Position numbers and translations under genes: made by a program. This document shows positions 17,846-32,084 of a DNA stretch of 64,000 nucleotides, piece after piece. Below the pieces are notes generated by a model. It was not told the origin of the DNA and searched no databases. It was given only the letters and a program-made list of their open reading frames with translations. Source of the stretch: an uncultured Pseudomonadota bacterium (lineage in GTDB: Bacteria > Pseudomonadota > Alphaproteobacteria > Acetobacterales > Acetobacteraceae); assembly GCA_963764465.1 (NCBI GenBank), contig CAVXSO010000004.1, positions 110,494 to 174,493 on the forward strand, in the 5' to 3' direction. How positions within the stretch are numbered: position 1 is the stretch's first letter; each line of letters begins with the position of its first letter.

Positions 17846-19624
17846 ATGCCGGGACCGACGACTTCGGCGTCGCGTCAGCCCTTGATTGTGTCCGTGGGTT
17901 GGCTGGCGCGCATCATCGTGATGCTGGTTGGCATCGCGCTGTCGGCGCCGGCGCCCGCACGCGCGCAGGGCGTGCCGCCCGCGGGGCCCATTGTGCCGCA
18001 GGGATCGCCGATCCCTCGGATCATTCCGCCTTCGCTACCTTCCGTCGGCCCCGCCACGCCGCCGCCGGCCCCTGCCACGCCCGCGCCGACCCCCGAGCGC
18101 CTGGTCACCGTCCGCTCGGTCAACGTCGTCGGCTCGACGGTCTATTCCGCCTCGGAACTCGGCCGGCTGACGCAGGGCGTGGTGGGGAAGGTGCTGCTGT
18201 CGCGAATCGAGGCGGCTCGTCTCGCGATCCTCAACAAGTACCGGCACGACGACTACCTTCTCACGGCGGTGAACGCACGGCTCGATGCCGCGGGGCATTT
18301 GACGTTCTCGATCATCGAGGGCCGCATCGCCGACGTGAAGCTGGCTGGCGATATCGGCCCCGCCGGCACGCAGGTGTTGCGCTTCCTCAACCACCTCACG
18401 GCAATCCAGCCGATCAGCAACGCCAGCCTCGAGCGCTGGCTGCTGCTGGCGCAGGACATTCCCGGGATCACGCTGCGCGCGGTGCTGCGGCCCTCCACAA
18501 CGGCGCCTGGCGCGCTCGAGCTCATCGCGCAGCTCAGCCGAAAGCCGTTCTCGGCCCTGTTCACCGCTGACAACCGCAGCGCCCCGTTCACCGGGCCGGA
18601 GGAAGCGCTGGCGGTGATCGACGCCAACAGCTTCACCTCGCTGGGCGAGCGCACCGAAGTCGCCCTTTATCACACCTTCAACAGCACCGAGACGTTCGGT
18701 CAGGCATCGATCGAGATGTTCCTCGGCGGCTCGGGACTTAGGCTGAAGGTCTATGGCGGAGCCGGCACCACCGATCCCACGGGTGGCGTGGGAGCCACCG
18801 GCTACGCGGGTACGACGCAGGTGGGCGGCCTGGCGCTCACCTATCCGGTGATCCGCGCCCGTGCGCAGACGCTGCTGGTCGGCCTCTATTTCGATGCGAC
18901 CGACGGGTCGATCGACAACGGCGTGCCGGTCTCGACCCTAGCCAACCACGACGGCGTGCGCGCGCTGCGGGTGGGGGCTGACTACGTGCGCCACGATGTC
19001 TGGCTCGGCGGCGCCTTCCCAGCGACCAATTCCGCAAGCCTGCGCATCTCGCAGGGTCTGCCCGCCTTCGGTGCCACGCCCGCCGGCGATCCCATGGCCG
19101 AACGGGCCGGCGAGGTCCCGGATTTCACCAAGTTCAATGCCCAGATCAGCCGGACGCAGACGCTGTTCGAACCCTGGCAGGGCTCGAGCGTGGCGCTGAT
19201 GGGCCTGCTGGCCGGCCAGTATTCGCCCAGCGTGCTGCCGCCGTCGGAGACGTTCTATCTCGGCGGCTCGCAGTACACGCGCGGCTACTATTCCGGCGAG
19301 GTCTCGGGCGACAACGGCCTCGCCGCCACCGCGGAACTGCAGCTCAACACCGGCTTCAGCACCACGCTGTTCGGCCGCGTGCTCAATGTCGCAACGCAGT
19401 TCTATATCTTCTACGACTGGGGCGAGACCTGGCAGAACCAGTCCGTGGACCCCAACAGCCGCGTGCAGTCGGAAGGCATGGGCGTGCGGATGGCGGTGGA
19501 CGAGAATACGGAGTTTGATCTGGAGGGCGTTATCCGCGGCGTGCGCCAGCCCCAGAGCGGCACGACCGGGGTAGCGCCGCTGAGCGCGGATGCCATCTAC
19601 TGGCGTGTGCTGACGCGTTTCTGA
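17846..19624 (+). CDS. ShlB/FhaC/HecB-family two-partner secretion outer-membrane transporter (TpsB)
   Basis: Signal peptide (IVMLVGIALSAPAPARAQG), a Pro-rich linker, POTRA-like region (VRSVNVVGSTVYSASELGRL...; IIEGRIADVKLAG) and a beta-barrel ending in aromatic YWRVLTRF. ATG 17846 is preferred over the track start at 17786. Confidence 0.9.
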   Translation: MPGPTTSASRQPLIVSVGWLARIIVMLVGIALSAPAPARAQGVPPAGPIVPQGSPIPRIIPPSLPSVGPATPPPAPATPAPTPERLVTVRSVNVVGSTVYSASELGRLTQGVVGKVLLSRIEAARLAILNKYRHDDYLLTAVNARLDAAGHLTFSIIEGRIADVKLAGDIGPAGTQVLRFLNHLTAIQPISNASLERWLLLAQDIPGITLRAVLRPSTTAPGALELIAQLSRKPFSALFTADNRSAPFTGPEEALAVIDANSFTSLGERTEVALYHTFNSTETFGQASIEMFLGGSGLRLKVYGGAGTTDPTGGVGATGYAGTTQVGGLALTYPVIRARAQTLLVGLYFDATDGSIDNGVPVSTLANHDGVRALRVGADYVRHDVWLGGAFPATNSASLRISQGLPAFGATPAGDPMAERAGEVPDFTKFNAQISRTQTLFEPWQGSSVALMGLLAGQYSPSVLPPSETFYLGGSQYTRGYYSGEVSGDNGLAATAELQLNTGFSTTLFGRVLNVATQFYIFYDWGETWQNQSVDPNSRVQSEGMGVRMAVDENTEFDLEGVIRGVRQPQSGTTGVAPLSADAIYWRVLTRF

Positions 19625-19637
19625 GGCAAGGGGCATC

Positions 19638-29848: not shown

Positions 29849-29906
29849 TCGGGGCTGGCCAGGCGCAATTGCGCCCGGCGCAACTGGGGCGGCGGGAACG
29901 GACGGC

Positions 29907-32084
29907 GTGGACGGCGAAAAGCTCGGCAAATATGAAATCCACGGCATCCTTGGCAAAGGGGCGATGGGCACCGTCTACGATGCCCGCGACCCTGTCATCG
30001 ATCGCCGCGTCGCCATCAAGACCGCCTCGCGCCCCGATGCCAGCGATGCCGAGGCCGCGGATGAGTTCGCGCGCTTCAAGCGCGAGGCGCAGGCCGCCGG
30101 CCGGCTGACCCATCCGAACATCGTCGGCATCTTCGATTACGGCGAGACCGACAAGCTCGCCTACATCGTGATGGAGTTCATCGACGGCCGCTCGCTCAAG
30201 GCGCTGCTCGACGCCAACGAGCGCCTGCCGCCGGCGGAGATCGTGCGCATCATGGAGGGGCTGCTCGCCGGCCTCGGCTACAGCCACGAGCGCGGCGTCG
30301 TGCATCGCGACATCAAGCCCGCAAATATCATGCTGACGCGCGACGGCACGGTGAAGATCGCCGATTTCGGCATCGCCCGCATCGAGAGCAGCAGCATGAC
30401 GCAGGCGGGCACGATCATGGGCACGCCCGCGTACATGTCGCCCGAGCAGTTCATGGGCCAGACCGTGGACCTGCGCACGGACATCTATTCCGCAGGCGTG
30501 GTCCTCTACCAGATGCTCACCGGCGAGCGGCCGTTCGACGGCAGCATGACGGCGATCATGCACAAGGTGCTGAACACGGAGCCGCCGCGCCCGTCCGAGC
30601 TTTCCGTGACCGCGCCGCGCGGCTTCGACGCGGTGGTCGCGCGCGCGATGGCGAAGCGCCCCGACGCGCGCTTCGCTTCCGCCACCGCCTTCGCCGCCGA
30701 TCTGCGCGCCGCGCTCGGCGGTGGTGCGCCGGCGGCCAGCGACGCGGCCGAGGCAACGTTGGTGATGAGCGGCGGCAGTGGCGGAGGAATCTCGCTCGGC
30801 ACCGGCCCGCTCACGCCGCCGGTGCCGCCGCCGCAATCGGCTCCCGCTCCAACCCCGAAGCCTTCCGGCGGCGGCAAGATGCTGCTGGTCGGTGGCGTCG
30901 TGGTCCTCGTCGTCGCGGCGGCGGTGGGCGGATATTTCCTGCTCGGCGGAGGTGCCCAGAAGCAGGCGCCAGTTGCCCCACCGACGCCCGCTGCGGCACC
31001 GGGAACCCCAGCGCCCGCGCCCGCCCCAGCGCCCGCGCCTACTCCCGTGCCAGCGCCTACTCCCGTGCCAGCACCGACGCCCGCGCCTGCTCCCGCGCCA
31101 GCGCAAGCACCGGCACCCGCGCCAGCACCCGCGCCAGCTCCGGCACCCGCGCCGACTCCGGCGCCCGTACCCATGCCGGCTCCAACCCCAACAACAACCC
31201 CGGCGCCGGCTCCCACGCCCGCACCAGTGCCGACGCCGACCCCAGCGCCGACACCAACACCGGCTCCGACGCCGACCCCGGCACCGACCCCAGCGCCGAC
31301 CCCGGCACCGGCCCCATCACCCGCGCCCGATACCGCTGCAATTAGCCAGCGCCTCGCAACCGTGCTCGCGCCAATCCCCTGCGCGATGCTCGATGGCGAG
31401 GTCGGCCCCGGCGGCAATGTCCAGGTCGGCGGCCTGCTGGGCGAGGCGCAGCGCTCCGCCTTGCGCCAGGCGTTGGCCAGTGCCGGCGCGCCCGGTGCGA
31501 CATTGGGGGTCGATGCCTTCGCCGGCCCCTATTGCCCGGTGCTGGACGCGGTTCATGCGGCGGTACCCGCCTTCGGCATTACGCCCGCGCTCGGGCTGTC
31601 GCTGGCCGGTGCATCCGGCCGCCTGCTGAAGGACGCGCATGTCATCCCGCGTCTCATGATGCCCGATTATCCCGCCTACCTGCAGGTGGACTATATCGCC
31701 AACGACGGAAGCCTCGCGCACCTGCACCCCTCCGGCGACGAGAAGATGCTGGACATCACGGCACCCGGCGGGGTGGTGAGCCATCGTCACGTAACTGCGG
31801 CCAGTGCCGCGCAGGTGATCCCGGCGGGGGCCACGGTCGCGATCGGCGATCCGGCGTTCTGCGGCTGCGATGCCTCGACCGTCGGCTGGACCGTGGCACC
31901 GCCCTATGGCACCGACATGATCCTCGCCATCGCCTCCTCCGCGCCGCTGTTCACGGCGCCGCGCCCGGCGAACGAGACCCTCGCCGCCTATCTCGCGGCC
32001 CTGCGCCAGGCAATCCAGGACGCAGAGGCCAAGGGTGTGAAAGTGGCGGTGCGCGCCATCCTGGTGCGGACGGCGGCGCAGTAG
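29907..32084 (+). CDS. Transmembrane Hanks-type Ser/Thr protein kinase with a Pro/Ala/Thr linker and an extracytoplasmic C-terminal domain (DUF4384-like)
   Basis: Kinase motifs [33 protein letters not shown] and [12 protein letters not shown] helix [25 protein letters not shown]-terminal domain ...[22 protein letters not shown].... GTG 29907 is chosen as start because the track ORF (29712) overlaps the CHAT gene. Confidence 0.88.
30966..31330 (+). repeat. Low-complexity (PAPAPTP)n coding repeat in the kinase linker, including an exact 18-bp tandem duplication (31035-31052 / 31053-31070)
   Basis: About 120 codons are almost exclusively Pro/Ala/Thr/Val. gcgcctactcccgtgcca occurs twice in tandem. 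Confidence 0.85.

Follow-up and report, generated by a model that had tools for sequence, protein, structure and literature searches.

Why would the genes of a two-partner secretion (TPS) system run on, in a single direction, into genes for a caspase-fold protease and a transmembrane Ser/Thr kinase? The question is raised by a locus occupying 17.8 to 32.1 kb of a 64,000-nucleotide (nt) stretch of DNA (hereafter, the window) from an uncultured alphaproteobacterium of the family Acetobacteraceae (GenBank assembly GCA_963764465.1, contig CAVXSO010000004.1, positions 110,494 to 174,493). An earlier note, made from the letters of the window alone, had read the locus as a four-gene operon in which a CHAT-domain lipoprotein matures, releases, or senses the exported TpsA filament and a kinase relays that surface event across the membrane. 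After comparing the locus with its relatives, we are confident that tpsB, tpsA, and the CHAT gene form a functional unit. The wider reading at which we arrive, an envelope-spanning signaling module in which the filament, the protease, and a PpkA-type kinase are attached to a neighboring type VI secretion system (T6SS), is offered in outline as a plausible one, to which we give slightly less than an even chance.

Organization of the locus

The four genes are consecutive and all lie on the + strand (the G+C content of the window is ~70%), which bears out the co-directional set of the earlier note; every coordinate and motif quoted there proved correct when the sequence was read again, and the profile searches that it had proposed for ShlB/POTRA, TPS, CHAT, and Pkinase all found matches (Pfam). 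The features of the locus, in window coordinates, are as follows (ORF, open reading frame; aa, amino acids).

17846 to 19624, + strand: tpsB, an outer-membrane transporter of the Omp85/ShlB family (Pfam ShlB, Omp85, and POTRA_2)
19638 to 20900, + strand: 5′ part of tpsA, encoding an extended signal peptide and the TPS domain, frame 0 (PF05860, E 1e-25; TIGR01901, E 2e-18)
20901, + strand: frameshift of one extra base in the context GCG-C-ACG, not a homopolymer (tblastn with the intact TpsA of locus L004)
20902 to 26745, + strand: 3′ part of tpsA, encoding a Gly/Ala/Ser/Thr-rich repetitive shaft of ~1950 aa (translation, in a frame differing from that of the 5′ part)
26323 to 26742, + strand: TpsA C-terminal domain, with the two-Cys motif NNCPIQAVSC and an acidic-aromatic tail (comparison of TpsA ORFs ending beside CHAT)
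26733 to 26739, + strand: Shine-Dalgarno sequence GGGAGGA for the CHAT gene, within the end of tpsA (sequence)
26747 to 29848, + strand: TPR-CHAT lipoprotein of 1033 aa (Pfam CHAT PF12770, E 3e-45; TPR_12)
29907 to 32084, + strand: Hanks-type Ser/Thr kinase of 725 aa (Pkinase PF00069, E 2e-53)

The junctions are short, and those on which the earlier note had dwelt match the sequence. Only 14 nt separate the tpsB stop from the start of tpsA at 19638, and a single nucleotide lies between the TGA of tpsA (26743–26745) and the ATG of the CHAT gene (26747); the stop of the latter (TAG, 29846–29848) is followed after 58 nt by the GTG at 29907 that is most plausibly the start of the kinase. The 1-nt gap suggests that translation of tpsA and of the CHAT gene is coupled, and a spacing of 1 nt or an overlap recurs at this junction in loci L004, L013, L019, and L088. 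A promoter/terminator scan of the locus, which is weak at 70% GC, returned no internal terminator.

Conservation of a three-gene core and its membrane transducers

The gene order recurs in dozens of genomes and is thus beyond what chance would produce. A scan of one genome per species yielded 80 loci with CHAT orthologues (38 to 80% identity), nearly all of them from Acetobacteraceae or other Rhodospirillales, and neighbors were counted by tblastn with the window proteins over the informative loci. The TpsA C-terminus lies immediately upstream of CHAT in 58 of 68 loci (tpsB and a TPS domain are nevertheless encoded upstream in several of the others), and a kinase domain lies immediately downstream of CHAT in 44 of 70 (37 of 59 when a kinase with the same ectodomain is counted). 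The adjacencies on which the earlier note had staked its interpretation are therefore conserved in related genomes, those of TpsA with CHAT and of CHAT with the kinase alike.

Since the kinase is not found directly downstream of CHAT in 26 of the 70 loci, the core module comprises three genes (tpsB-tpsA-CHAT) and not four. Three loci have their kinase at the tpsB end, on the opposite strand. In a neighbor-joining tree of CHAT proteins, kinase-linked loci occupy most clades and kinase-less loci are gathered in a few separate clades, and one metagenome-assembled genome (MAG) holds one locus of each kind; the kinase is a frequent fourth member of the module and probably an ancestral one. That it is functionally tied to tpsB-tpsA-CHAT seems to us fairly likely.

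The three-gene core persists down to ~33% CHAT identity, including in Niveispirillum, where it is followed by a different transducer. On the Niveispirillum plasmid (L088), tpsB-tpsA-CHAT (33% CHAT identity, 7-nt overlap) precedes a CHASE2 adenylate/guanylate cyclase (L088:17589–19532), and on a Sphingobium plasmid (L091), the order is CHAT, CHASE2 cyclase (L091:13050–15092), a small ORF, tpsB, and a 1924-aa protein. Because two unrelated kinds of membrane transducer with periplasmic sensor domains thus occupy the same place, the link between TPS, CHAT, and a transducer appears to be functional and not accidental. The proposal that a membrane protein relays a surface event gains support from these cyclases in its general form. 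CHAT proteins also turned up on plasmids of Agrobacterium vitis, Rhizobium, and Pseudosulfitobacter; their contexts are unrelated and contain no TPS genes.

A further gene accompanies many of the loci. Between the kinase and a downstream OmpA-like gene, ~25 loci carry equivalents of a 327-aa gene (L004:15515–16498, − strand) whose product has an N-terminal transmembrane (TM) helix and an HExxH motif (LHHELSHG) and falls into neither a Pfam nor an NCBIfam family; an unrecognized membrane metalloprotease is one possibility. No remnant of this gene was found in the window or in its close relatives.

TpsB, TpsA, and the conserved TpsA tail

TpsB carries the profiles PF03865 (ShlB, E 2e-18), PF01103, and PF08479 (POTRA_2). 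Its ORF opens at a TTG (17786), and translation from the ATG at 17846 gives a signal peptide that ends ARA-QG. Orthologues of tpsB stand upstream of tpsA in the compared loci. A ShlB-type POTRA/Omp85 transporter next to a TPS-domain TpsA is the makeup of type Vb two-partner secretion, and TpsB is predicted by homology to export a giant TpsA filament to the cell surface. Neither the shaft nor the C-terminus of TpsA matched any Pfam or NCBIfam family, and hence no VENN/pretoxin module is present; nor is there a small, immunity-sized ORF after tpsA, the next gene being that of the 1033-aa lipoprotein. On both counts, profile scans and ORFs uphold the earlier note, and a contact-dependent inhibition system (CdiBAI) can be ruled out, toxin/VENN and immunity modules being absent.

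What the TpsA proteins of these loci have in common is their end. TpsA ORFs that terminate beside CHAT share a C-terminal domain with the motif N-x-C-P-I-x-S-V-N-C, an acidic stretch, and a terminal [LV]-L-P-N-[VI]-S-[DE]-x-D-Y-COOH, typically …LLPNVSDEDY-COOH; the tail in the window reads ILLPGIAREDY-COOH (26710–26742). Among 63 long TpsA ORFs beside CHAT, 46 end exactly in P-x-[IV]-x3-[DE]-[YF]-COOH. A word-indexed homologue search with this C-terminus found no match, and an exhaustive search of cluster representatives did find matches, to 350 representatives at E ≤ 1e-3; in the best 150 of these 350, the matched segment reaches the C-terminus, or comes within ~70 residues of it, in proteins of up to 4409 aa. 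The tail varies in step with the CHAT clades, and the two loci of one MAG carry distinct cognate tail-CHAT pairs.

In one respect, the four-gene description needs to be amended: the co-directional set is real, but tpsA is not one ORF in this assembly, being split near 20901. The 5′ part is 54% identical to the intact orthologue up to base 20900, and the alignment of the intact TpsA of L004 (3321 aa) switches frame between 20900 and 20902, with residues 395 and 396 flanking the extra base and none lost. The public gene call, a 1949-aa product, starts just past the shift, and the frameshift is therefore present in the deposited assembly. A programmed frameshift can be ruled out, as the orthologues of L004 and L088 are single ORFs. 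The shift may mark a true pseudogene or a single-base assembly error, and if it is real, the filament arm of the system may be inactive in this genome. The T6SS genes scanned in the window, TssF, TssM, TssC, and ClpV among them, match full-length profiles, which argues that the assembly is not generally error-ridden.

Sister genomes add to this picture. In L093 (GCA_027324965.1, contig DAHWFO010000155.1), as also in L094, tpsA has shrunk to a 54-codon in-frame remnant (L093:9835–9999), the first 19 codons being joined in L093 to the last ~35 and ending …ILLPGIARKDD; tpsB, CHAT (82% identical), and the kinase are intact there, and the upstream synteny is the same. Given the frameshift in the window and the remnant in its sister, CHAT and the kinase appear not to depend strictly on TpsA. 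Other sister genomes have tpsA ORFs of >1800 to 2100 aa. The region syntenic with L093 (12335–16654) encodes a ChW-like protein, a GT4 glycosyltransferase, a DUF169 protein, and a class I/II aminotransferase, and the bestrophin-like gene that follows it in the window (16867–17766, − strand) was found in no other locus.

Within the shaft, tpsA contains long direct repeats (22048–22347 versus 24163–24462, 96% identity, 2115-nt spacing; 22672–23172 versus 23737–24237, 83 to 84% identity, 1065-nt spacing), and the protein has ~230-aa blocks that are nearly identical. These repeats probably explain why contigs break off inside tpsA in many MAGs, and they offer a substrate for length variation. The similarity of the shaft to the TpsA proteins of other loci is weak.

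A predicted extracytoplasmic TPR-CHAT protease

The CHAT protein opens with a lipoprotein signal (…LIPALAGC) whose lipobox Cys is residue 23 (26813–26815), as the earlier note had recognized, and a Cys occupies this position in at least 90% of the aligned orthologues (in the variants LAGC, LLAC, LASC, and LFGC). The alignment comprises 16 orthologues at 54 to 82% identity. A beta-rich four-Cys domain (residues ~40 to 170) comes next, then a TPR superhelix (residues ~186 to 620) and the CHAT domain (residues 699 to 1013), in agreement with the TPR_12 match and with the earlier note, which had placed TPR-like repeats and a four-Cys domain ahead of the catalytic contexts. The catalytic dyad consists of His865 (HFATHA, 29339–29341) and Cys916 (LSACNTGG, 29492–29494); both contexts had been described as intact, and both residues are invariant in the 16 orthologues. 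Eight further cysteines are equally invariant: four in the N-terminal domain (C56, C69, C109, and C128), together with C476, C498, C804, and C874. Such an even number of conserved cysteines is expected of disulfide-bonded extracytoplasmic proteins and points to that location. The extracytoplasmic placement claimed by the earlier note is thus supported by the near-invariant lipobox Cys, by the eight invariant cysteines, and by a match to the periplasmic TPR-CHAT protein DdvA, and we regard the protein as a predicted lipoprotein outside the cytoplasm.

The AlphaFold2 (AF2) model (pLDDT 73) reproduces a beta-rich N-terminal domain, a long TPR superhelix, and a CHAT fold. In Foldseek, its best match is DdvA, followed by the Craspase protein Csx29 and then by separases; entries 8rw5, 7xsr_C, 7y8t_B, and 9hn0_B are matched with a probability of 1.0 and E values of 1e-10 to 1e-8, at modest TM-scores of 0.25 to 0.53. 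By sequence, the TPR region matches kinesin light chain (E 1e-19), and KLC1 is among the entries matched, with cargo peptides of JIP1 and torsin-1A either fused to it or bound. The kinesin light chain cargo motifs of JIP1 and torsin-1A are acidic/aromatic. Binding of the TpsA tail by the TPR of the lipoprotein is suggested by three features taken together: the conserved extreme C-terminus of TpsA, the apparently tight translational coupling of tpsA to the CHAT gene, and the likeness of the TPR to kinesin light chain.

Two other identities were considered for the CHAT protein. It is not part of a known (catalogued) defense system, since PADLOC returned no match of CHAT, TpsB, or TpsA to any antiphage defense model, and it is not an anti-sigma factor of the DdvA type, its N-terminus being a lipoprotein signal plus a four-Cys beta domain; no sigma-factor family was found among the flanking ORFs scanned with Pfam.

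The kinase and its ectodomain

All catalytic motifs of Hanks kinases (G-loop, VAIK, HRD, DFG, and SPE) are present in the kinase domain (~29931–30668), which is followed by one TM helix (30879–30944), a linker, and an ectodomain (31335–32081). The architecture given in the earlier note is thereby confirmed, with a linker of 130 aa, 87% of which is Pro/Ala/Thr. In the AF2 model (pLDDT 90), the 249-aa ectodomain folds into an alpha/beta subdomain and a beta-sandwich; a fold search in the PDB gave no match at E < 1e-3, only generic Ig-like sandwiches at E > 3e-3. The suggestion that this domain is DUF4384-like stands in part: DUF4384 (PF14326) scores 35.8 bits in the orthologue of L004 and is precomputed on 10 of 20 matches, including a 100%-identical fragment, but the copy in the window, at 23.8 bits, falls below the cutoff of 27. 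PADLOC matched the kinase to generic Ser/Thr kinase models only (PD-T4-6 and mad6).

DUF4384 is found in the C-terminal domains of some Csx30 proteins, the substrate of the TPR-CHAT protease Csx29 (bioRxiv 10.1101/2022.08.17.504292), and fusions of the domain are known from orthocaspases (PMC8283722) and from a proteobacterial kinase family (bioRxiv 10.1101/2025.01.12.632604). If Csx30 and DdvA are a guide, the DUF4384 ectodomain or the linker of the kinase would be as good a candidate as TpsA for the substrate of the CHAT protease.

The ectodomain also occurs by itself. Plasmid pL11-A of Pseudoroseomonas cervicalis (L085:13974–16537) encodes a stand-alone 211-aa homologue without a kinase domain, adjoined by an OmpA-family gene and by a gene whose product is homologous to the HExxH protein, at 44% identity. 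Since the three are grouped there in the absence of a kinase domain, they seem to constitute a submodule of their own.

A type VI secretion system next to the kinase

Beyond the kinase, the window holds two features that bear on the target of the relay.

32278 to 32910, − strand: OmpA-family peptidoglycan-binding protein with a signal peptide, convergent with the kinase (Pfam OmpA, E 4e-22)
34523 to 60023, both strands: complete T6SS cluster resembling the imp cluster of Agrobacterium (Pfam scans)

The cluster comprises a first block on the − strand (tssG, tssF, tssE, tagJ/impE, two copies of tssC, tssB, and tssA), clpV and hcp on the + strand, and a second block on the − strand (pppA [PP2C], tagF, tssM, tssL, tssK, fha/tagH, PAAR, and vgrG). 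The kinase gene lies 2.4 kb from tssG. The threonine-phosphorylation components Fha, TagF, and PppA are all encoded in the cluster, and the kinase is the sole component absent from it; in the 64-kb window, tblastn with the kinase domain matched 29907–30746 only, and no other kinase was found. The kinase in question is thus a transmembrane kinase encoded beside a T6SS with Fha/TagH and PppA. This neighborhood had escaped the earlier note: its idea of the kinase as a membrane transducer is supported, but the relay would probably feed into this T6SS.

Homologues elsewhere occur within T6SS operons. Plasmids of Azospirillum lipoferum and A. ramasamyi carry an annotated operon of the order tssM-tagF-vgrG-DUF4123-PAAR-tagH, with tssL ahead of tssM in A. 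lipoferum, followed by a Ser/Thr kinase that aligns end to end with that of the window (32% identity, E 4e-75), across the kinase domain, TM helix, Pro-rich linker, and ectodomain. Of the CHAT loci compared, 19 of the 31 with a kinase have T6SS or PppA/threonine-phosphorylation genes no more than 10 kb away, as against 2 of the 19 without one (Fisher p = 4e-4, with loci counted as independent despite their shared ancestry). The T6SS genes nearest the module vary by locus (tssF/G, tssM/tagF, fha/tssK, or tssC), and close relatives of the window have the identical order kinase-OmpA-methyltransferase-tssG-tssF. Because the cluster has no kinase of its own, because the Azospirillum homologues sit in T6SS operons, and because of the association across loci, the kinase is best read, from context and homology, as the PpkA-type kinase of the neighboring T6SS. 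That it serves this T6SS we consider somewhat better than an even bet.

Three observations concern the genes around this junction. The OmpA-like gene is found downstream of the kinase in ~30 loci. Between it and tssG, a methyltransferase with a MethyTransf_Reg domain (32991–34976, − strand) is kept at the same spot in the T6SS-adjacent loci L006, L009, L015, L031, L050, L059, L069, L072, L081, and L095 to L097; we know of no role in T6SS for a methyltransferase of this kind. Within the T6SS cluster (region 47347–48656, − strand), the TagF_N ORF (48078–48656) and the PP2C ORF (47347–48330) overlap by ~250 nt in different frames, the PP2C profile match beginning ~100 codons into its ORF; these are probably either adjacent genes or a TagF-PppA arrangement as in Agrobacterium.

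Comparison with known systems

Each part falls into a known family (TPS, CHAT, lipoprotein, Hanks kinase, or DUF4384), and it is their wiring that appears to be undescribed. Literature searches for CHAT together with two-partner secretion, filamentous hemagglutinin, or ShlB, for CHAT with T6SS, and for CHASE2 with CHAT or with TPS returned nothing relevant, a TPS review does not mention CHAT, and we found no published description of the arrangement, in keeping with the earlier note, which knew of no characterized example.

(i) Bordetella FhaB/FhaC resembles the TPS arm: there, too, a giant filament is exported by a TpsB, and its conserved C-terminal region is handled by dedicated envelope proteases (SphB1, DegP, and CtpA). 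The FhaB prodomain is retained in the periplasm (PMC8263021, PMC4542190). In the present locus, by contrast, the protease is a caspase-fold TPR-CHAT protein and not a subtilisin, HtrA, or Ctp enzyme, its gene appears to be coupled in translation to tpsA, the end of TpsA has no Pfam match and bears no relation to the FhaB prodomain, and a kinase and a T6SS are attached. A second TPS parallel, Burkholderia bcpAIOB, likewise has an additional gene for a predicted periplasmic lipoprotein, BcpO, which is required for TpsA function (PMC5422565); BcpO, however, is small and not a protease, and the toxin and immunity modules of bcp are absent here.

(ii) Threonine phosphorylation of T6SS runs through TagQRST-PpkA-Fha1-PppA in Pseudomonas aeruginosa and through PpkA-TssL-Fha-TagF/PppA in Agrobacterium. 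Shared with these pathways are a transmembrane Hanks kinase with a periplasmic domain, encoded beside a T6SS with Fha/TagH, TagF, and PP2C, and envelope lipoprotein or periplasmic accessory proteins that sit upstream of the kinase. The upstream parts are TPS and CHAT instead of TagQRST, and the kinase lies outside the T6SS operons, co-oriented with tpsBA-CHAT. The P. aeruginosa PpkA ectodomain is a vWA domain, unlike the DUF4384-type ectodomain found here, and the two kinases are likened by genomic context.

(iii) DdvA of Myxococcus xanthus (PDB 8RW5/8ROT) has, as is predicted for the protein described here, an extracytoplasmic TPR-CHAT with an intact His/Cys dyad, employed in signaling across the membrane (Foldseek E 1e-10; ~15% sequence identity). 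It is a transmembrane anti-sigma factor whose CHAT domain is proposed to act as a site-1 protease, cutting a flexible linker beside the TM helix (PMC11506125). Unlike DdvA, which unites CHAT with a cytoplasmic anti-sigma domain and a TM helix in one polypeptide, the CHAT protein of the present locus is a separate lipoprotein, with a kinase as the transducer.

(iv) Craspase (type III-E CRISPR Cas7-11, Csx29, and Csx30) shares the TPR-CHAT architecture, and the DUF4384 domain of some Csx30 substrates offers a parallel to the pairing of CHAT with a DUF4384-type domain in the present locus. Craspase differs in being cytoplasmic and RNA-guided; the locus has no cas genes and a predicted periplasmic site of action.

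Proposed mechanism and alternative explanations

The mechanism that we envisage would start from the C-terminal domain and acidic-aromatic tail of TpsA. Like the FhaB prodomain in Bordetella, these would remain periplasmic, and the tail would there engage the co-translated lipoprotein, probably by way of the TPR that resembles kinesin light chain. If the filament at the surface were then touched, pulled, shed, or damaged, the engagement of its tail could change and switch the CHAT protease, which would act on the TpsA tail, on the kinase linker or DUF4384 ectodomain, or on both; the kinase would phosphorylate Fha/TssL and so bring about T6SS assembly, and PppA/TagF would reset the system. Spelled out to this degree, the mechanism is doubtful. 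A more specific version would make the TpsA filament a contact or damage sensor of the T6SS, its tail restraining the lipoprotease and the freed CHAT clipping the kinase linker or ectodomain to license T6SS firing; TPS plus CHAT would then be a portable outside-in sensor head, plugged into kinases in Acetobacteraceae and into CHASE2 cyclases in Niveispirillum and Sphingobium. We offer it as a speculation that we would not expect to hold in full.

Several points weigh against a signaling module of this kind. Every step after secretion is inferred. The tpsA gene is frameshifted in this assembly, and a sister genome keeps tpsB, CHAT, and the kinase though its tpsA is almost wholly deleted. The kinase is missing from its place directly downstream of CHAT in 26 of 70 loci (three of which have it at the tpsB end), and 12 of the 31 kinase loci show no T6SS gene within 10 kb; these locus counts are, moreover, not phylogenetically independent. 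The Azospirillum kinases have no TPS or CHAT gene in the 10 to 12 kb shown on each side, the TpsA of Niveispirillum has a different C-terminus, and the pLDDT of 73 gives the CHAT model only moderate confidence.

Some of these points would be met by a narrower account, in which the CHAT protein is only a protease for the maturation, release, or quality control of TpsA, or a tether for it (an analogue of SphB1, CtpA, or DegP), and the kinase is an independent T6SS PpkA kept next door by inherited synteny. The coupling of tpsA to CHAT and the conserved TpsA tail would fit such a role, for which FhaB, with its retained C-terminus processed in the periplasm (PMC8263021, PMC4542190), sets a precedent, and so would the three-gene cores without a kinase directly downstream and the occurrence of the same kinase type in Azospirillum T6SS operons with no TPS or CHAT in the flanks shown. 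This account sits poorly, however, with the 12 of 31 loci in which the kinase stands beside CHAT without a T6SS gene within 10 kb, with the three in which it moved to the tpsB side yet stayed in the module, with the nonhomologous CHASE2 cyclases in the equivalent position in two other orders, and with the independent association of DUF4384 with caspase-fold proteases (PMC8283722; bioRxiv 10.1101/2022.08.17.504292); we judge it unlikely. Another would see in the locus a sensor of envelope stress or phage after the manner of DdvA, with CHAT as a site-1-like protease acting on the kinase, the filament as a decoy or receptor, and general phospho-signaling with a PP2C partner as the output. DdvA, the closest structural match, controls antiphage islands (PMC11506125), and in L004, L058, and L073, a PP2C orthologue stands close to the kinase, their 10-kb flanks yielding no further T6SS gene; yet these PP2C genes are 60 to 66% identical to the T6SS PppA of the window. 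The kinase domain matches the generic PD-T4-6 defense kinase models, but these match Hanks kinases generally, CHAT has no PADLOC match, and a recognized defense gene occurs in none of the annotated or Pfam-scanned flanks examined. A stress or phage sensor of this kind appears very improbable to us.

The remaining alternative concerns this genome alone, in which the locus might be decaying, tpsA being a true pseudogene and CHAT and the kinase either relics or independent of the filament. The frameshift does not fall in a homopolymer and is part of the assembly as deposited, full-length profile matches of the scanned T6SS genes speak against frameshifts throughout that assembly, a sister genome has lost tpsA by a clean deletion, and the 327-aa HExxH gene, present in most loci, has likewise disappeared from the clade of the window. 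On the other side, further sister genomes retain long tpsA ORFs, the 5.8-kb shaft shows no additional disruption, metagenome assemblies can err by a single base, and CHAT and the kinase retain all of their catalytic residues; decay strikes us as rather unlikely.

Implications

The prevailing view of TPS systems is that their two components serve to export adhesins or toxins, and not that they are signaling devices. To our knowledge, the activation of T6SS threonine-phosphorylation kinases is largely unresolved outside TagQRST of P. aeruginosa, and DdvA, whose signal is unknown, is the sole extracytoplasmic CHAT protease to have been studied. A conserved operon that links TPS, an extracytoplasmic CHAT protein, and a T6SS-type kinase, and that is found in culturable Belnapia, Roseomonas, and Plastoroseomonas, provides a genetically tractable system for outside-in signaling by a secreted filament. 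It bears on the substrate logic of periplasmic caspase-fold proteases, on the role of DUF4384, and on the posttranslational control of T6SS, and the parallel loci in which TPS and CHAT are joined to CHASE2 cyclases suggest that the principle is general. If the proposed wiring is true, it could show how T6SS weapons sense the outside world.

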